The notes under the pieces: model-generated
Database searches by the model: none
What the model was told of the DNA's origin: nothing
The model's input: only the letters and a program-made list of their open reading frames with translations
Assembly (NCBI GenBank): GCA_022616535.1
Contig: JAKEEM010000035.1
Span: 718-64,717 of the forward strand
Source: Chlorobiota bacterium
GTDB taxonomy: Bacteria > Bacteroidota > Ignavibacteria > Tepidaquicellales > OLB5
Reading direction: 5' to 3'
Length of the DNA stretch: 64,000 nt
Made by a program: the position numbers and the translations under genes
Shown here: piece after piece, positions 26,053-34,682 of the stretch
How the letters are laid out: every line of letters begins with the position of its first letter
Position numbering within the stretch: position 1 is the stretch's first letter

Positions 26053-26119
26053 CCAGTGTGGTACCATATATGCCTGCTCGTTCCGCAGGCAGGCGGCCCC
26101 TGCATAATGCAATCCGAAA

Positions 26120-27142: not shown

Positions 27143-27418
27143 TTACTTGGATTCAATTTTAGACTCTACGGGCAATACGCTGATTTTTTTCTTTGACCTG
27201 CTGTGATTGGTGAACTTAACTTTACCTTCAATCAAAGAAAAAAGCGTGTCGTCTTTTCCTTTGCCCACGTTAAGCCCGGGAAAGAACTTTGTTCCTCTCT
27301 GCCTCACAAGAATGCTTCCAGCCGTAACAAGCTCGCCCCCGAATCGTTTTACTCCAAGCCTCTGCGAATTTGAATCGCGCCCGTTTTTTGTGCTTCCTAA
27401 ACCTTTTTTATGTGCCAT
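27143..27418 (-). CDS. rpmA: 50S ribosomal protein L27
   Basis: [24 protein letters not shown]. Confidence 0.98.
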
Positions 27419-27451
27419 TGTAGATCAATTAAGAATTACGAATTAAAAATT

Positions 27452-27472
27452 ACCTGCCTGCTGCAGGCAGGC
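27452..27472 (+). repeat. Palindromic element ACCTGCCTGCTGCAGGCAGGC, copy 1
   Basis: Same 21-mer at 27822-27842 and, reverse-complemented, at 34620-34640. Confidence 0.9.
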
Positions 27473-27475
27473 GAA

Positions 27476-27784
27476 TTATTTTATTGAGTTAATTTCGATT
27501 TCCGTATACTGCTGGCGGTGGCCTTTGGTTCTTTTATAACCTTTCCTTTTTTTCTTCTTGAAAACAATAACCTTGTCATCCTTTACATGTCCAAGAACCG
27601 TTGCGTCAACTTTCATCGAAAGGTTCGGCTCACCGACTTTAAATGATTTGTCGTCTTTGCTGTACATTAATACATCGCCAAAGGTGACTTTTGCTCCGGC
27701 TTCTTCCTTAAGCTTCGGTACAAAAATCCTGTCGTTTTCCGAAACCCTATACTGCTTTCCTTTTATATTTACTATTGCAAACAT
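27476..27784 (-). CDS. rplU: 50S ribosomal protein L21
   Basis: MFAIVNIKGKQYRV, KGHRQQYT. Confidence 0.98.
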   Translation of the reverse strand: MFAIVNIKGKQYRVSENDRIFVPKLKEEAGAKVTFGDVLMYSKDDKSFKVGEPNLSMKVDATVLGHVKDDKVIVFKKKKRKGYKRTKGHRQQYTEIEINSIK

Positions 27785-27821
27785 TGTATTTAATGATTTT
27801 AAATTTCTATTTCACTATTCC

Positions 27822-27842
27822 ACCTGCCTGCTGCAGGCAGGC
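27822..27842 (+). repeat. Palindromic element ACCTGCCTGCTGCAGGCAGGC, copy 2
   Basis: Identical to copy 1. Confidence 0.9.
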
Positions 27843-27868
27843 CACTTCACTATTTTCGCTCTTTGGTG

Positions 27869-27941
27869 TGGAGCTAAGGAGGATCGAACTCCTGACCTTC
27901 TGAATGCCATTCAGACGCTCTCCCAGCTGAGCTATAGCCCC
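27869..27941 (-). tRNA. tRNA-Ala(GGC)
   Basis: Reverse complement GGGGCTATAGCTCAGCTGGGAGAGCG-TCTGA-ATGGCAT-TCAGA-AGGTCAGGAGTTCGATCCTCCTTAGCTCCA; G3:U70 pair; no encoded CCA. Confidence 0.96.
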
Positions 27942-28054
27942 CTTAAATTGGTAAAATCACTTTATGATTTTAAGGAACTACAAAATTAGCAATAAATTAG
28001 CCCAATTTCAAACCAAAATATTAACAAAATCAGTAAAATCATTCATTTTTGCAA

Positions 28055-28465
28055 TTAAAAATGCATGGGCAGATTTTGCTTTTGCCACTCCTCAATTCCC
28101 CCAGCAATATAATGAACATTTGGAAAATTCAGCTCTTTCATCAGCTCAAACGTATTTGCACTCCATTTATTGTTTTGTGAATATATTATATATGTCTTTT
28201 TTCTGTCCAGTTTCTCGATTTCATCGGGGAAAGTTGTCCGCTCGTAATCCATTAAAACTGCGCCTTGTATGTGAATTTTATCGTACTGGACCTTAGTTCT
28301 TACGTCAAGAAGGACGATATCTTCATCACCCTTGTGTTTTTTAAGGAAATTATATGCTTCTTCAACTGTGATTTTATCACCCGATAAGGAGGGGAAAAAA
28401 TATTCACATGAAGTAAAAATTACTGAAATTATTAATATAACAAAAATGCTTCTCAATATTTGCAT
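28055..28465 (-). CDS. Rhodanese-like domain lipoprotein
   Basis: Lipobox FTSC; LLDVRT, HIQGA, IAGGIEEW; active-site loop reads YSQNNKWS. Confidence 0.8.
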   Translation of the reverse strand: MQILRSIFVILIISVIFTSCEYFFPSLSGDKITVEEAYNFLKKHKGDEDIVLLDVRTKVQYDKIHIQGAVLMDYERTTFPDEIEKLDRKKTYIIYSQNNKWSANTFELMKELNFPNVHYIAGGIEEWQKQNLPMHF

Positions 28466-28769
28466 TTATTTAAACATACCGTTAAAATAGTATTTTTTTG
28501 ACTCATAAATCAATTTTGAAAAAAGTTTATTAAAATTCAACTTAAAAAGGCAAAAATGGCGGCTTAGAATTGTAACAAAAAATACTACACAACTATCATA
28601 CAATGTGCTATTTTTCAGTGAAGCGTTGAGTATTATTTTTGTTGCAGTAATTGGCCCTTATGTTTATCAGGATGTTAAACAGGATATGAATCAGGTAAGC
28701 CCCTTACGATTTTCAAAGCAAAACCCTTATGAAATGAGGTAACAACCCTTATAAGTTTTAAAGATTTTA

Positions 28770-28813
28770 AAAACCGGCTCAAAAGAGAAATCTAAAGGCC
28801 GGTTTTGCTTTTT
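28770..28813 (+). terminator. Putative intrinsic terminator
   Basis: AAAACCGGC...GCCGGTTTT stem followed by GCTTTTT. Confidence 0.55.
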
Positions 28814-28885
28814 CAATCCCCGGACTATCTAATCCCTCCTCTAAAATTCAATATTTTTTATAATGTTTTATGCATAATTTAGCTT

Positions 28886-30103
28886 ATGCTAATGAGAGCA
28901 GTTATATTACTTATTGTCCTTTTTACGGCATTTAGCTCGAGATTTGATTCCCACCAATCGGGAGAGTTTAAGCTCGGCAATGAAGTTTTGCTGGATAATA
29001 TTGAAATTTTGAAAAATAAAAATGTCGCTCTTCTTACAAACCAAACAGGAATACTTCCTTCCGGTACACACATTGTTGACGCGCTTATTGATAAGAAAAT
29101 AAATGTCGTTAAGATTTTCTCGCCTGAGCACGGCATAAGGGGCGATGAGAATTACTCAAACATTGACGAAAAAACCGAAATACCAATTGTTTCGCTTTAC
29201 GGCGGGAAAAATAAGCCGTCTAGCGGTGATTTGAAAAACGTCGATATTATCATTTACGATATTCAGGATGTAGGGGCAAGGTTTTACACATACACATCTA
29301 CACTTTACTACATGCTTGAATCAGCAATCCAAAACGGCAAGACTGTTATTGTCTGTGACCGACCAATTATTATCAATCCTGCTTACACAGACGGATTTAT
29401 GCTTGAGCCGGAGTTTGAATCGTTTGTAGGACTCGTCCCCGCACCCGTTTGCTACGGAATGACCTGCGGCGAGCTGGCCATTTATTTATGCAATTATGTT
29501 TTTAATAACACCGATTACTTGAAAGTCTACGAAATGCAGAATTATTCACGCTCAACCGATTACAATGCCCTAAATCTTCCGTGGGTTAAGCCCTCGCCCA
29601 ATATGCTGAGCCCCCAAACAGCAGTTTGCTACCCCGCAACCTGTTTTCTTGAAGGCACTAATGTATCCGAAGGCAGGGGAACGGCAAAGCCGTTTGAATA
29701 TTTCGGCGCGCCGTGGGTAAATTCCGAACTGCTTGCAAAAGCACTTAATTCATATAATCTAAGCGGAGTTGTATTTGAACCCGTAACATTTACTCCGAGC
29801 GAAAAAATATCCTCATACCCGCCAAAGTTTTTTAACAAGACTTGCTATGGGGTTTACATTAATGTAACCAATAAAAGCGCATTTGAGCCGGTCAAAGCAG
29901 GTACAGCGATTTTGATTGAGCTGCATAAAAACTTTCCGGAATTTAAGTTTAATAAGGCTCATTTTATCGATAAGCTTGCGGGCACTGACAAGCTGCGTAA
30001 ATCCGTTACCGAGGGCAAAAGCTTAAGTGAAATCAATTCGCTTTGGAAAAGCTCTTTAAATGAATTTAATTTAAAAAGAGAAAAAATTTTATTATACAGG
30101 TAG
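28886..30103 (+). CDS. Exo-beta-N-acetylmuramidase NamZ family (DUF1343)
   Basis: LLTNQTG, FSPEHGIRG, DIQDVGARFYTY, PSPNM, SEGRGT.PFE. Confidence 0.9.
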   Translation: MLMRAVILLIVLFTAFSSRFDSHQSGEFKLGNEVLLDNIEILKNKNVALLTNQTGILPSGTHIVDALIDKKINVVKIFSPEHGIRGDENYSNIDEKTEIPIVSLYGGKNKPSSGDLKNVDIIIYDIQDVGARFYTYTSTLYYMLESAIQNGKTVIVCDRPIIINPAYTDGFMLEPEFESFVGLVPAPVCYGMTCGELAIYLCNYVFNNTDYLKVYEMQNYSRSTDYNALNLPWVKPSPNMLSPQTAVCYPATCFLEGTNVSEGRGTAKPFEYFGAPWVNSELLAKALNSYNLSGVVFEPVTFTPSEKISSYPPKFFNKTCYGVYINVTNKSAFEPVKAGTAILIELHKNFPEFKFNKAHFIDKLAGTDKLRKSVTEGKSLSEINSLWKSSLNEFNLKREKILLYR

Positions 30104-30127
30104 TTTATACAGTTAGCCGAAAAAACT

Positions 30128-33085
30128 ATGCTTAAGGAAGAACTAAAATCAATTTTCAGGAAATACAAAAGCGACAGCGAAATTTATCACGATTTGGCAC
30201 AATATCATGTGAGGGAGATTCTTCTTGTTACATCCCTATACGATGCGTTTATTCTTGAGGAGGAGGAAAGGCTGAACGAAAAAATATTCGGTGAGTATTA
30301 TAATCTCGATTTGGTTAACGTCCCGAGAATAACCAACGCCTCCGATGAAAACGAAGTGGAAACTCTGCTTAAGCAGAAGTATTTTGATTTTGCCATAATT
30401 ACTATGAGGACGCAGAATATAACTCCAATTGAGCTTGCGGAGAAAATCAAAAAAATAAGGCCAAAGCTGCCAGTTTTTCTGCTCCTTTACGATAACAGCG
30501 ATATCGCATTTGTGAATCAGATGAGGGATATGATTGATATTTTCGAGAAAATTTTTGTTTGGAACCGCGATACAAAAGTGTTTCTTGCCATTACCAAATA
30601 TTTTGAAGATAAAAAGAATGTTGAAATCGATACCGAAGTGGGGCTTGTCAGGGTAATTCTTCTTGTCGAAAACTCAATTAGGTATTACTCGCGCTACCTG
30701 CCGGTGCTGTATAATGAAATTATCAAGCAGACGCAGCGGCTTATTACGCTGGACGGGCTTGACGGAATGAGAAAAATACTAAGGATGCGTGCAAGGCCCA
30801 AAGTCCTAATGGCGGTTAATTATGAGGAAGCAATTGAAATTTACGAGAAGTACAAGGAGTATCTGCTATGCGTAATATCGGATGCAAGGTTCCCCCGTGA
30901 AGGCAAAATAAATGAAGAAGCCGGCATAAATCTCCTTGAGCGTGTTAAAACTGATGGCGGTGATATTCCATTTCTTCTTCAGTCATCAGAAGGAAATTTT
31001 GAAAAGGTCGCCTCTAAGCTTGAGGTTTCGTTTATAAATAAAAACTCAGATACCTTATCGGAAGACTTAAAGGATTTTGTCGTCAATAACCTCGGGTTCG
31101 GAGATTTTATTTTCAGGGATAAGGAGGGAAATGAAATCGTAAGAGCTGCTTCGATTGCTGAGTTTAAAGACTATCTTGAAGCGGTGCCGGCGGACTCGGT
31201 CTTATACCACGGAAGCAGGAACCATTTTTCGGCATGGCTAATGGCAAGGGGCGAAATCAGAATTGCAGAACAGCTTCAGCCCATTAAGGTATCGGATTTT
31301 CCGGGCGCAGAGGAGGTAAGGAAATACTTGATTGAAGTTATACGCAATGTTGAGCCGAGCGTCTCACGCGGGGGGGTGGTTGATTTTGAGGAAGAGGATT
31401 TCTTTGTGGAAGATGATTTAATCCTTAGGCTTTCAAACGGCTCCTTTGGAGGCAAGGGCAGAGGAATAGTTTTTATAAATACGCTGATTCAGGCAAAGGA
31501 GCTTTTTAAGGAAGTTGATGGTGTATCGATAAAAATTCCAAGAACTGCAGTTGTAGGAGTTGAAGAATACGATAACTTCCTTGATAAAAATAACTTAAGA
31601 AAGATTTACCTTAAATCCGGCTACGATGCCTTAAAAAAACGATTTTTAAAATCCGAGCTATCCAATGAGCTGAAATTCAAGCTCCGCTCATATCTTAAAA
31701 AAGTTAAGGTTCCCCTTGCAGTCCGCTCATCGGGAATGTACGAGGACTCAATCTCCGAGTCGTTTTCCGGTATTTATCAGACTTATCTTATACCCAACAA
31801 TCACCCCTCGGTCGACGAGCGCCTTAAAAACCTTACCGATGCTATTAAGCTTGTTTACGCTTCCGTGTTTTCGAAGCACTCAACTGCATATTTCGATGCC
31901 ATTAATTACAGAATCGATGAGGAAAAAATGGCGGTCGTTATTCAGGAGATTGCCGGAAAAGATTTCGAGGATACATTTTTCCCCAATATATCGGGAGTTG
32001 CCCAGTCATACAACTTTTACCCAATATCGCGCTTTAAGCCGGAGGACGGCATCTGCGTAGCCGCACTTGGACTCGGTAAATATGTGATTGACGGCGAAAA
32101 GGCATACCGCTTCTGCCCGAAGTTTCCGAAAATAGATATCATATCTCCCGAAGACCAGATTAAAGACACCCAGTCTTTCCTGTATGCAATCGATATGAAA
32201 AAACAGCTTGCCAATCTTGTTGAGGGCGAGGACATTACTTTGAAAAAGGTCGATATCAGTGAAGCCGAAAAGTTCGGGGTGCTTGAGGGCATCGCATCGG
32301 TTTGGGACCCGCAGGACAAGAAAATGAAAACAGGACTTAACTTTCCCGGTCCAAGAATAATAAATTTCGGCGGTGTGCTGAAGCTTAACACTTTCCCGCT
32401 TGCGCAGATTTTAACAAGACTGCTTGAAATCATTGAAAGCTCAATGGGTCTTCCCGTTGAAATTGAGTTTGCCGCAAATTTAAACAGCGGCAAACCGGCT
32501 TTTTACGTCCTGCAGCTTAAGCCGCTTATCAGAAGCTCGGAATACTTTTCAATCGAAACGGGCGAAATAAAAAAAGATGAGCTTGTACTTTATACCGAAA
32601 GGGGAATGGGCAACGGAAAGATTGACTATATAACCGATATAATCTACGCAGACCCTGAGAAGTTCAACAAATCCGAAACAGTCCAAATGGTGCATGAAAT
32701 TGAAAAGCTGAACGAAAAAATGCGTGGCGAAAACAAAAATTATATATTAATCGGACCCGGCAGGTGGGGAACCCGCGACAAATGGCTCGGTATTCCCGTT
32801 GTGTGGACGCAGATTTCAAAAGCGAAAATAATTGTTGAGACAGACCTTGCGGATTTTAAAGTCGATGCCTCGCTCGGCTCGCATTTCTTTCATAACATTA
32901 CGTCTATGAATATCGGCTACTTCACGGTTCACAGCACAAACGGCGAGGCGTTTATTGACTGGGGCTGGCTTAAAAGCATTACGCCGTTTGAAACCACGCA
33001 GCACTTCACTCACCTTAAGTTCGCTCAGCCTCTTGTAATCCTTATGGACGGCAAAAAGAGCATTAGCTTGATTAAGAAGAATTAA
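30128..33085 (+). CDS. Receiver-domain / PEP-synthase (PPDK_N) ATP-grasp fusion protein
   Basis: REC-like ILLV strands and CVISDARFP; GGKGRG, LAVRSSG..EDS, MAVVIQE and EIEFA ATP-grasp motifs; C-terminal SLGSHFFHN. Confidence 0.85.
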   Translation: MLKEELKSIFRKYKSDSEIYHDLAQYHVREILLVTSLYDAFILEEEERLNEKIFGEYYNLDLVNVPRITNASDENEVETLLKQKYFDFAIITMRTQNITPIELAEKIKKIRPKLPVFLLLYDNSDIAFVNQMRDMIDIFEKIFVWNRDTKVFLAITKYFEDKKNVEIDTEVGLVRVILLVENSIRYYSRYLPVLYNEIIKQTQRLITLDGLDGMRKILRMRARPKVLMAVNYEEAIEIYEKYKEYLLCVISDARFPREGKINEEAGINLLERVKTDGGDIPFLLQSSEGNFEKVASKLEVSFINKNSDTLSEDLKDFVVNNLGFGDFIFRDKEGNEIVRAASIAEFKDYLEAVPADSVLYHGSRNHFSAWLMARGEIRIAEQLQPIKVSDFPGAEEVRKYLIEVIRNVEPSVSRGGVVDFEEEDFFVEDDLILRLSNGSFGGKGRGIVFINTLIQAKELFKEVDGVSIKIPRTAVVGVEEYDNFLDKNNLRKIYLKSGYDALKKRFLKSELSNELKFKLRSYLKKVKVPLAVRSSGMYEDSISESFSGIYQTYLIPNNHPSVDERLKNLTDAIKLVYASVFSKHSTAYFDAINYRIDEEKMAVVIQEIAGKDFEDTFFPNISGVAQSYNFYPISRFKPEDGICVAALGLGKYVIDGEKAYRFCPKFPKIDIISPEDQIKDTQSFLYAIDMKKQLANLVEGEDITLKKVDISEAEKFGVLEGIASVWDPQDKKMKTGLNFPGPRIINFGGVLKLNTFPLAQILTRLLEIIESSMGLPVEIEFAANLNSGKPAFYVLQLKPLIRSSEYFSIETGEIKKDELVLYTERGMGNGKIDYITDIIYADPEKFNKSETVQMVHEIEKLNEKMRGENKNYILIGPGRWGTRDKWLGIPVVWTQISKAKIIVETDLADFKVDASLGSHFFHNITSMNIGYFTVHSTNGEAFIDWGWLKSITPFETTQHFTHLKFAQPLVILMDGKKSISLIKKN

Positions 33086-33312
33086 GTTTGCGGATTTGTT
33101 GCTCTTATTTTATAGTGTTAACAAGAAGCCGACGATGAATACTGTTTTTAAAATATGTGTCCAATTCCTTAACATACTTGCTGATCTAACAGGATTAACT
33201 TATCAGCAGGTAAATGTAACCATATTTTGTATACTTTGGCCCGTAAATAATTGTTTATCTGATTAAAATAGTTTTCAAAAAGTTCTTTAAACGCTTAGTA
33301 TAATTATGCCTT

Positions 33313-33660
33313 TTAATCAGGCTCAACATCCGTTGCATGGAAATAATCTCCATGCGAATGTCCTGTAAGTGTTACGGTTTTAGTATTATTAATTCCGGGC
33401 GGAAGCTCTTTGCCAAGAGTTACTTTCTTTTCAATGCCTTTTTTATCTTTAACAAAAAACGTTACCCCGCCATCCTGATTTGAGGTGAATCCCTTTTCCT
33501 GAATTACCTCCACCTTAATATTTTTGTTGGCAGTACTGTTAATATCGAAGTCATCAAACGATCCCGTTCCCTCTTTTGATGTAAAATAAACACTGTATGC
33601 AAGATATACCAGAAATAAAATTATTATTGCCAGTATTACTGTCTTTTTTGATTTTGTCAT
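33313..33660 (-). CDS. Membrane-anchored OB-fold protein, CcmE-like
   Basis: Single N-terminal TM helix; TFFVKD..G....V, P.G......VTLTG......FHATDV pattern. Confidence 0.5.
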   Translation of the reverse strand: MTKSKKTVILAIIILFLVYLAYSVYFTSKEGTGSFDDFDINSTANKNIKVEVIQEKGFTSNQDGGVTFFVKDKKGIEKKVTLGKELPPGINNTKTVTLTGHSHGDYFHATDVEPD

Positions 33661-33811
33661 GATTTAAGTCCAGAAAAAAAATAATTCTAAAATGATTTCT
33701 ATGATTGGCTTAATGATACAAAAATAATAAAATAAGGCAGAATAACCGAATTTTGTTACTCCTTTGTTACTCGCCAAAAAATAAATTCAATAGGGACAGA
33801 TACTTGCCTTA

Positions 33812-34543
33812 TTAACTAGGGTTTGTTGCCCACACCGTTGCCTCTGTTATAAAACCTCTGTCATCCAATTCAAGCATGCTTATGATTGTATGAGCAATGT
33901 CTTCGGCTACAAGCTTTGTGGGGTTGATTTGTTTTTCTTCGCCGTGTTTAATAAAGCTTTTAAGCCATGTGGCTGAGTTATAGGAAAAATCTGTCTGCAC
34001 TTCGCTTGGATTTACGAGCATAACGCGGATATTGCTTTTCCTTAATTCCGCGCGCCAGCATTCGGTCATTCCCGCAAGCGCAAATTTCGATGCAACGTAA
34101 GGCGTGCCGTTTGCATAGCCCTTAGTTCCCGCTGTCGATGAAATGTTAACAATGTTGCCGTATTTTTGCTTAATAAAATGTTTTGACGCCTCGCGAGCGC
34201 AAAGCATTGCGCCTGTCAGATTCACAGCGAGCATCTTATTGAATTTTTCAAGCTCAATTTCCGATATATGTGCAAAATATCCGAATGCGGCATTGTTAAT
34301 CAGCACATTAAAATCACCAAGCTCTTTAACAACAGTTTTCACCATATCAACAACGTCTTTTTCAACGCTCACATCAGCCTTCACAGCCAGCGCGCCGAGT
34401 TCTTTTGCCGCATTATTTAGATTCTCTGAATTTCTTCCGCAAATTGCGACTTTTGCGCCTTTATCGATAAGCGCCTTTGCCGTTGCGTAGCCGATTCCCA
34501 AGCTTCCGCCGGTTACAAGTGCCTTTGCATTTTTTAAATTCAT
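33812..34543 (-). CDS. Short-chain dehydrogenase/reductase
   Basis: TGGSLGIG, NNAA, YVASK. True start is ATG 34543 with an AGGAG SD; the longer ORF call runs into the REP element. Confidence 0.9.
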   Translation of the reverse strand: MNLKNAKALVTGGSLGIGYATAKALIDKGAKVAICGRNSENLNNAAKELGALAVKADVSVEKDVVDMVKTVVKELGDFNVLINNAAFGYFAHISEIELEKFNKMLAVNLTGAMLCAREASKHFIKQKYGNIVNISSTAGTKGYANGTPYVASKFALAGMTECWRAELRKSNIRVMLVNPSEVQTDFSYNSATWLKSFIKHGEEKQINPTKLVAEDIAHTIISMLELDDRGFITEATVWATNPS

Positions 34544-34601
34544 TTTAACTCCTTTGTTAGGACTACAATATAAAAAAAATTTTGTAAAATCCCTATTGAA
34601 T

Positions 34602-34682
34602 GTAGGGGACGACCCTTGTGCCTGCCTGCAGCAGGCAGGTCGTCCCAAAAAAATAGGACAAACACACGGGTTTGTCCCTTAC
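34602..34682. repeat. Inverted doublet of GTAG-type REP hairpins (REPIN-like) with a nested 19-bp palindrome
   Basis: GTAG-GGGACGAC-CCTTGT-G[19 bp]TCGTCCC, then on the other strand GTAA-GGGACAAAC-CCGTGT-GTTTGTCC. Confidence 0.8.
34620..34640 (-). repeat. Palindromic element ACCTGCCTGCTGCAGGCAGGC, copy 3
   Basis: GCCTGCCTGCAGCAGGCAGGT is the reverse complement of copies 1 and 2. Confidence 0.9.

Follow-up and report, generated by a model that had tools for sequence, protein, structure and literature searches.

A 19-nucleotide hairpin, probably an ultra-small insertion element, in a Chlorobiota genome and across bacterial phyla

The window analysed here is a 64,000-nt stretch of the genome of a Chlorobiota bacterium (contig JAKEEM010000035.1, positions 718-64717; C58 in our numbering). 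The genome, which we call G000, comprises 2.89 Mb in 77 contigs and has a G+C content of 38.7%. Within the window, a 19-nt sequence, CCTGCCTGCWGCAGGCAGG (the 19-mer), occurs in three exact copies, starting at window positions 27453, 27823 and 34621. It is a palindrome, perfect except at its centre: the stem CCTGCCTG(C)/(G)CAGGCAGG encloses a single unpaired base, which confers a polarity on the element. The form with a central T, CCTGCCTGCTGCAGGCAGG, lies on the plus strand at 27453-27471 and 27823-27841, whereas at 34621-34639 the plus strand carries the form with a central A, the T-form being on the minus strand. A first-pass annotation of the same DNA had described the three copies as identical and the third as inverted; this was borne out, and the identity extends to a 21-mer of A, the 19-mer and C. 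In 100 dinucleotide-preserving shuffles of the window, not one match to the 19-mer with three or fewer mismatches appeared.

Copy 1 lies in the spacer between rpmA (ribosomal protein L27; 27143-27418, minus strand; PF01016, E 6e-37) and rplU (ribosomal protein L21; 27476-27784, minus strand; PF00829, E 9e-37), at aattcg^taattttt in gene orientation. Copy 2 follows in the spacer between rplU and a tRNA-Ala(GGC) gene (27868-27941, minus strand; ARAGORN, and Rfam RF00005 with 63.5 bits), 27 nt from the latter. Copy 3 splits a host hairpin, GGGACGA...TCGTCCC (34607-34646), whose neighbours on either side are the genes for a short-chain dehydrogenase and a glutamate dehydrogenase. Taking the 19 nt out leaves AATTA|CG within a run of AATTNNN heptamers at the first site, ATTCCA|CC between ATTTCACT-like octamers at the second, and the hairpin GGGACGA-CCCTTGTG-TCGTCCC, with a stem of 7 bp and a loop of 8 nt, at the third. 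The earlier proposal that removal restores the host pattern is thus plausible for all three sites, but it is soft, as a 28-nt comparison found no empty paralogue of any of them within G000.

Elsewhere, empty and filled versions of the same site can be compared. We counted as an empty paralogue any site that lacks the 19 nt and has at most three mismatches in 28 nt. Among the 53 copies found in G000 when one mismatch and any central base are allowed, 11 have at least one empty paralogue, compared to none for 60 random removals of 19 nt. A copy just beyond the window (C58:65259) has nine, five of them exact. Insertion sequences (IS) of the IS630 type in a gammaproteobacterial chromosome (G041), of which there are seven copies, 94-100% alike, are polymorphic for the 19-mer: site A is empty in one of six, site B is empty in three of seven and filled in four by exactly +19 nt, and a third site is filled in all six copies that keep it. 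In the seventh copy (L157, G041:C1:2072433-2072672), about 100 nt between two 19-mer sites have been deleted and a single 19-mer is left; here, the hairpins appear to mediate deletions.

Orthologous positions also occur in both states. In the rplU-rpmA spacer the 19-mer sits at aattcg^taatttttaatt in G000, and a relative (G012) has it inverted at that target; the other 10 relatives compared (10/11 spacers), six of them congeners of G012, have no 19-mer there. At the site of copy 2, both relatives with tRNA-Ala-rplU synteny (G014 and G001) are without it. The empty sites in relatives that the first-pass annotation had suggested looking for therefore exist, and in some genomes the insertions are recent.

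The insertions are simple. Empty and filled pairs differ by exactly +19 nt, and direct repeats of 2-5 nt flank the element at the rate seen in shuffled sequence; therefore, there is no target duplication, in agreement with the initial description of a minimal insert. Hairpins of the type called NTS (GTCATTCCCGC-N4-GCGGGAAT) likewise reappear when exactly 19 nt are removed, and the 19-mer interrupts such repeats at a single position both in G000 and in several other phyla. G000 has 16 NTS-like repeats in all (three or fewer mismatches to GTCATTCCCGCGAAAGCGGGAAT; for example C41:82125, C69:20071 and C72:46674), three of which are split by the 19-mer at one spot. Their motif is the one described for Neisseria SsnA, here found in an unrelated phylum.

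With the strand carrying the central T as reference, we tabulated the neighbouring bases in 128 distinct contexts from other genomes across phyla. A purine precedes the T-form in 110 of the 128 (80 G and 30 A) and a pyrimidine in the rest (15 C and 3 T), and the base 3' of it was C in 45, G and T in 37 each, and A in 9. The 36 exact copies in G000 have G 21, A 10, T 5 and C 0 on the 5' side. Positions -2 to -6 are near even, so that the bias is limited to the purine at -1. The flanking bases are thus not random, but the insertion rule A^C put forward earlier does not hold; because the 5' neighbour is generally a purine, A^C is a special case of the three window sites. Purines on both sides occurred in 37 contexts and pyrimidines on both sides in 9 (p=4e-5), with 13 and 3, respectively, in G000 (p=0.02), p-values that are rough because contexts within one genome or among kin are not independent. 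Since the central base pair is the sole asymmetry of the element in double-stranded DNA, its coupling to the purine argues for a process that is strand-specific and probably acts on single strands.

Among the exact G000 copies, 33 of 36 are clearly intergenic, often 3-100 bp from the end of a gene, and the other three lie in doubtful open reading frames. Judged by eye, the neighbouring genes that we looked at have mainly housekeeping functions (nusG-, rplK-, rpsS- and def-like), and there was no nuclease or transposase among those looked at for the 36 copies. An insert of 19 nt would shift a reading frame, which may be why G000 has perhaps no copies within genes. In G041, the element does sit within IS transposase genes; at one such site the reading frame stays open owing to an adjacent 1-nt deletion, and the insert is read as TCLLQAG. 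Empty sites fold more stably than random spacers (mean -7.0 versus -5.1 kcal/mol, Mann-Whitney p=0.006; at or below -8 kcal/mol in 39% versus 19%), and 9 of the 128 cross-phylum contexts have complementary bases in at least six of eight flank positions. Landing sites include hairpins resembling NTS or repetitive extragenic palindromes (REPs), displaced fragments of tRNA genes and AT-rich quasi-palindromes. The suggestion that the element targets other repeats holds insofar as it often sits within repeats or hairpins, but repeats with an empty paralogue host only 11 of the 53 copies. Tandem arrays as a general target we reject: flank periodicity was on average that of random spacers, and clear arrays were found at 3 of 53 sites.

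The T-form is on the plus strand in 16 and on the minus strand in 20 of the 36 exact copies in G000; allowing three mismatches raises the number of loci to 71. Sixteen of 41 relatives have the exact 19-mer, copy numbers over the 41 ranging from 0 to 80, and within one genus G012 has 45 copies compared to 0-2 in its 15 congeners. In an even sample of 301 genomes of the phylum it occurred in eight, G000 included, with 1-4 copies in each of the other seven. The pattern read backwards gave no match in any of the genomes counted. A scan of one genome per species found at least 125 stretches with the exact 19-mer, which by record title belong to at least 11 phylum-level groups. The titles among the matches listed name Gammaproteobacteria, Desulfobacteraceae/Thermodesulfobacteriota, Bacteroidota, Ignavibacteria, Acidobacteriota, Brocadiaceae, Latescibacterota, Dehalococcoidia, Armatimonadota, Elusimicrobiota, Caldithrix and Bipolaricaulota; the cultured Bacteroidota isolates among them are Algoriphagus, Pedobacter, Robertkochia and Perlabentimonas. 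G041 holds 438 copies, followed by G043 with 27, G042 with 22, G044 with 8 and G045 with 2. A collection of viral contigs contained only eight stretches with the 19-mer, and their neighbouring genes were uninformative.

Taken as a mobile insert, the 19-mer is well supported. We judge it probable that the three copies in the window belong to an ultra-small, non-coding, hairpin-forming insertion element. Its movement would take place in trans, with single-stranded DNA as the moving form and a horizontally spreading, sequence-specific enzyme as the agent. The hairpin would be excised or copied at the foot of the stem and then joined to single-stranded DNA that lies exposed elsewhere. Several observations weigh against this account. 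We saw no strand bias over 0-1.015 Mb of G041, where plus-strand T-forms number 91 and A-forms 76, and the interdependence of contexts noted above tempers the polarity argument. The search for empty sites in sequencing reads, also proposed at the outset, gave no clean empty allele of the three window sites in the covered parts of the public runs. That the enzyme would be encoded outside the window agrees with our finding no candidate gene of the two families searched, PF01797 and GIY-YIG, on the window's contig.

In these public runs the window sites are filled. Copy 1 is present in the independent run X4 (record 8, covering 27272-27562 with 0 differences), copies 2 and 3 are present in run X6 (record 26, covering 27769-28130, and record 31, covering 34497-34671), and the site at 34621 is filled in a strain about 95% alike as well (run X3, record 7). 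One X3 contig joins 27418 to 27474, skipping 27419-27473 with unknown letters in between, which is not a precise empty site; this related strain differs over the whole stretch of heptamers and 19-mer upstream of rpmA.

The leading candidate for the mover is a small single-domain GIY-YIG nuclease, similar to the Ssn enzymes, from cassettes lodged in tRNA genes; the displaced tRNA fragment of these cassettes repeatedly carries the 19-mer, and we regard the nuclease as a possible mover, though short of likely. G000 has six small GIY-YIG genes, one of them broken, all outside the window (C18:43285, C38:3489, C40:16474 and 16891, C20:18843, C10:38598) and each next to a tRNA gene (Asp, Leu, Met, Gly, Ile). 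At most of these loci a GC-rich hairpin interrupts a displaced partial copy of the tRNA gene, as observed for Asp, Leu and Gly, and the units look like selfish cassettes lodged in tRNA genes. At C20 the hairpin that splits the displaced tRNA-Gly copy is the exact 19-mer. In G005 (locus L130) the exact 19-mer splits a displaced tRNA-Leu at GGCAGA^CGCAC and brackets the tRNA-nuclease unit on both sides, and in G009 it splits displaced tRNA-Leu copies at GGTAGA^CGCGC beside a GIY-YIG gene at two loci (L205, CAA, and L207, TAA). G280 has only three copies of the 19-mer; one of them, 31 nt from a GIY-YIG gene, is located in a displaced piece of tRNA-Leu, within its T-arm.

Over six genomes (G000, G001, G005, G009, G012 and G030), 5 of 40 small GIY-YIG loci have an exact 19-mer within about 200 bp, where about 0.3 would be expected by our own arithmetic; at one of the five, the 19-mer is nested in an NTS hairpin. 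The idea that an enzyme gene flanked by the motif might be found is answered in part: these five loci, with L130 flanked on both sides, speak for it, but the other loci, as well as the genes of another enzyme family discussed below, lack the motif. Among 30 GIY-YIG loci of the phylum sample, a tRNA gene adjoins 23 and variant CCTGCCTG...CAGGCAGG hairpins occur at three; others carry TCCCGCTAAAGCGGGA, TCCGTCAGCTGACGGA and further hairpin types. Six of the ten rows bearing the hairpin label in a 69-row tree of the nuclease proteins fall into two well-supported tRNA-Leu clades. A nuclease flanked by NTS shares 37% identity with the mini nuclease that lies beside the 19-mer. In a search of PDB sequences these mini nucleases resembled only the UPF0213 proteins 1zg2 and 1ywl, and a scan against NCBIfam gave no family above the cut-off.

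The cassette may thus be where the hairpin lives and from where it enters a genome. A further step, which we regard as doubtful although conceivable, is that Ssn-like single-domain GIY-YIG nucleases are the transposases of their own hairpins, an enzyme of 80 residues, lodged at a tRNA gene, excising a 19-nt hairpin from single-stranded DNA at the foot of its stem and rejoining it elsewhere.

Other observations count against a role for the nuclease. No 19-mer was found near any of the 10 small GIY-YIG loci of G012, which has 45 copies, nor near the six of G001 or the one of G030. None of nine isolated 19-mer copies in six low-copy genomes lies within about 1 kb of a GIY-YIG gene, and a search for PF01541 in G044, with its eight copies, gave no match. 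The family is present in 191 of the 301 phylum genomes, the exact 19-mer in 8. On the nuclease tree the hairpin label changes eight times, compared to 9.5 times when shuffled, and 45 of 500 shuffles were as low; hairpin type thus clusters weakly, the alignment having too few columns to tie type to clade. The closest relative of the tRNA-Leu nucleases linked to the 19-mer (G000:C38) has a different hairpin. Displaced tRNA-like sequence hosts only 2 of the 53 G000 copies, a third match being the real neighbouring tRNA-Ala. The adjacency could then simply reflect that displaced tRNA pieces are tolerant, structured landing sites.

The same loci can be read the other way round: the 19-mer would mark the end of the GIY-YIG cassette lodged at the tRNA gene, or be a scar of it, and solo copies would be footprints of integration, excision or abortive homing. 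The shared position in displaced tRNA-Leu beside the nuclease in G005 and G009, the displaced pieces at G000:C20 and in G280, and the 19-mers on both sides of the unit at L130 would all follow from this. We nevertheless find it rather unlikely: as just noted, few G000 copies are in displaced tRNA-like sequence, solo copies are found in IS genes, NTS hairpins and spacers as an exact gain of 19 nt with no other cassette sequence, and sister cassettes have quite different hairpins at the same place.

Three side observations concern the small nucleases and their hairpins. At L140 (G041:C1, ~2534050-2534095), some 200 bp past a GIY-YIG gene of 96 aa, a hairpin similar to the 19-mer is fused with a (CCTG)6 run; the hairpin arm can expand as a microsatellite. 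At L159 (G086:C19:516158-517916), five identical mini GIY-YIG units stand in tandem beside a tRNA-Asn gene with a spacing of 382 bp. L185 (G260:C1) is an array of five tRNA-Leu(CAA) copies, three of which have a 20-nt hairpin of the CCTGCCTG type in the D-loop.

The first-pass annotation had thought of mobilisation by an HUH/Y1 transposase. The 19-mer would then be a REP-type element moved by a REP-associated tyrosine transposase (RAYT) or by a Y1 (HUH) transposase of the IS200/IS605 type encoded elsewhere in the genome. Its being a short extragenic palindrome, with dozens of copies and no target duplication, fits this. Moreover, G000 has five RAYT-like Y1 genes, four of about 153 aa and one cut to 93 aa (C24:9295-9753, C25:22820-23284, C76:13788-14252, C76:48447-48908, C10:82867-83148), each flanked by its own hairpins of 19-22 nt (GGACTGTTCCCCGAACAGTCC, the CGACAGRCATTCYTGYCTGTCG group and GTCCGTTCTCCGAACGGAC); several tiny REP-RAYT pairs thus coexist and work there. 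In G042 there is one weak Y1-like match about 410 bp from a 19-mer. Yet none of the five G000 genes has a 19-mer beside it, and PF01797 genes, present in 36 of 41 relatives, are unrelated to its copy number. Neither G041, with its 438 copies and recent, polymorphic insertions, nor G043, with 27, has a PF01797 match at E<=0.01, and the 19-mer has neither the conserved adjoining tetranucleotide of REPs nor, in G000, doublets like those of REPINs. Because no RAYT is flanked by the 19-mer and these two genomes have no match, we hold the proposal to be unlikely and a Y1/HUH transposase to be the less likely mover. A diverged or plasmid-borne Y1 enzyme may still act as such.

A fixed functional motif, kept or made in place as a protein-binding site, a terminator or regulatory hairpin, or the product of a methylation or repair ratchet, would account for a palindrome that is perfect but for its central base and intergenic in G000. 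The 19-mer also contains GCWGC and CTGCAG, which we take to be restriction and methylation sites. We consider this very unlikely, since orthologous spacers of relatives lack the 19-mer, copy number ranges from 0 to 45 within one genus, and IS transposase genes and other repeats are interrupted by exactly +19 nt. An intrinsic terminator, consisting of a GC-rich hairpin followed by a T-run, we reject: a T-run follows 6 of the 36 G000 copies, as at random positions (16%). That the motif is an insert rather than a fixed part of terminators is also what the exact empty and filled pairs say. No Rfam match overlaps the 19-mer, so that a known Rfam family is rejected too.

Contamination with an oligonucleotide might be suspected when one short palindrome recurs unchanged in many metagenome bins. 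A sequencing or assembly artefact, for instance a palindrome from an adapter or linker, can nevertheless practically be dismissed, since the same sites are filled in contigs of runs from two studies, and the element is present in cultured isolates and chromosome-level assemblies at fixed orthologous and paralogous positions.

Returning to the mobile hairpin, some related sequences bear on its surroundings. Relatives of the 19-mer share its arms but differ in the centre, which is C or CC, is missing, or is replaced by a second small hairpin 12 nt long; in G000 they lie at C40:15499, C68:17668, C21:73228, C30:11908, C50:20197, C11:125921 and C25:56356, and they form a family of nested micro-hairpins. 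Both degenerate relatives reported earlier in the window are there. The plus-strand sequence at 17277-17295 matches at 15 of 19 positions and may be a relic in the form of a decayed copy, or chance; that at 26072-26094, also on the plus strand, forms a similar hairpin in which the arms of the 19-mer enclose a loop of 7 nt (GCCTGC-TCGTTCC-GCAGGCAGGC) and is one of 122 extra half-sites in G000.

A longer repeat, agtgggattgtgactCCTGCCTGCcttgtgggcgtacc, found mostly at G000 contig ends (C8:9020, C9:323 and 59725, C16:19873, C24:2459 and 47892, C28:56734, C42:72, C48:445, C49:194, C51:35054, C58:65248), has the CCTGCCTGC arm in common with the element; a 19-mer is found within one of its copies. 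The repeat probably represents the end of an IS or miniature inverted-repeat transposable element (MITE) that was not assembled.

Stretches of about 37 nt that are 86-97% identical to the 19-mer of copy 1 plus its AT-rich flanks (aattaaaaatta...cgaat; window 27441-27477) are found in several genera (G000:C28:25907 and C30:11901; G001:C491; G012:C119 and C93; G003:C33; G004:C24). This points to a target that is strongly preferred or else to a moving unit slightly larger than the 19-mer.

In behaviour, the small dispersed repeats (SDRs) of Nostocaceae are the closest known system. The repeats SDR4-6, reportedly 21-27 nt long, are said to have been described by Elhai et al. in 2008. Both they and the 19-mer are very small, non-coding and mobile-like, insert precisely into short palindromes or repeats and are patchy among relatives (PMC4390886, PMC5861425, PMC3116915); SDR5, for instance, inserts between nt 3 and 4 of HIP1 (PMC4390886), and a mobilising enzyme is known for neither SDRs nor the 19-mer as far as these texts go. 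Unlike SDRs, reported from Nostocaceae only (PMC5861425), the 19-mer is letter-identical in at least 11 phylum-level groups. At 19 nt it is also shorter than SDRs reportedly are.

The single-domain GIY-YIG Ssn enzymes, as set out by Chenal et al. 2025, bind NTS/SRM hairpins as single-stranded DNA and cut a few bases upstream, and the NTS-ssnA-NTS layout is likened there to an IS (PMC11893778). These hairpin repeats of about 20-50 nt are directional, reach up to hundreds of dispersed copies and stand beside small single-domain GIY-YIG genes (PMC11893778). The element described here resembles them in polarity and dispersal and, at 5 of 40 loci, in its place near such a gene. The 19-mer as a member of the published SRM pattern (PMC11893778) was rejected: none of the 36 copies with their flanks fits it, whereas 14 matches to the pattern occur elsewhere in G000. 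In addition, the 19-mer itself inserts into NTS-type hairpins, and the main text of that study, to the extent available, names neither tRNA genes nor the 19-mer and does not demonstrate insertion of SRMs (PMC11893778).

Like the REPs and REPINs served by RAYTs, as described by Bertels and Rainey 2011, the 19-mer is a short extragenic palindrome with many copies and is non-autonomous (PMC3116915). It differs in forming no inverted doublets in G000, where the nearest pair is 370 bp apart, and in having no RAYT flanked by it and no PF01797 match in G041 or G043. REPs are lineage-specific and have a conserved, GTAG-like tetranucleotide beside the hairpin; the 19-mer, in contrast, is identical across phyla and has no such neighbour.

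IS200/IS605 elements have distinct hairpins at their left and right ends and, acted upon by a Y1 HUH enzyme on single strands, insert 3' of a specific target of 4-5 nt. The 19-mer is one 19-nt hairpin with only a purine preference at -1 (110 of 128 contexts), and in the part of G041 analysed no replication-strand bias was seen. It resembles them in the lack of target duplication, in hairpin recognition and in strand polarity (PMC11893778).

MITEs have terminal inverted repeats, are usually longer than 50 bp and duplicate their target. We reject this class for an element of 19 nt without duplication.

Literature searches with both forms of the 19-mer and two of its inner pieces returned only unrelated eukaryotic matches, and searches for a description of such an element (as an SDR, or as a GIY-YIG gene with a tRNA gene and a palindrome) found none. 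As a mobile hairpin it is very small, smaller than any in print that we know of, letter-identical across phyla and directional.

Should a hairpin of 19 nt be able to move, it would mark the lower size limit of mobile DNA and point to an undescribed enzyme activity, the sequence-specific cutting and joining of single-stranded hairpins. If the GIY-YIG nuclease proved to be responsible, the 19-mer would be the smallest known mobile DNA, and GIY-YIG would be a new class of transposition enzymes spreading across bacterial phyla. The link to Ssn enzymes, if true, would provide a natural role for nucleases that are wanted as tools for single-stranded DNA, together with ready-made pairs of enzyme and site. 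As cultured isolates carry the 19-mer, the question can be tested at the bench. By interrupting and remodelling IS elements, REP-like repeats and the cassettes linked to tRNA genes, the 19-mer gives rise to small-scale changes in the genomes of many phyla.

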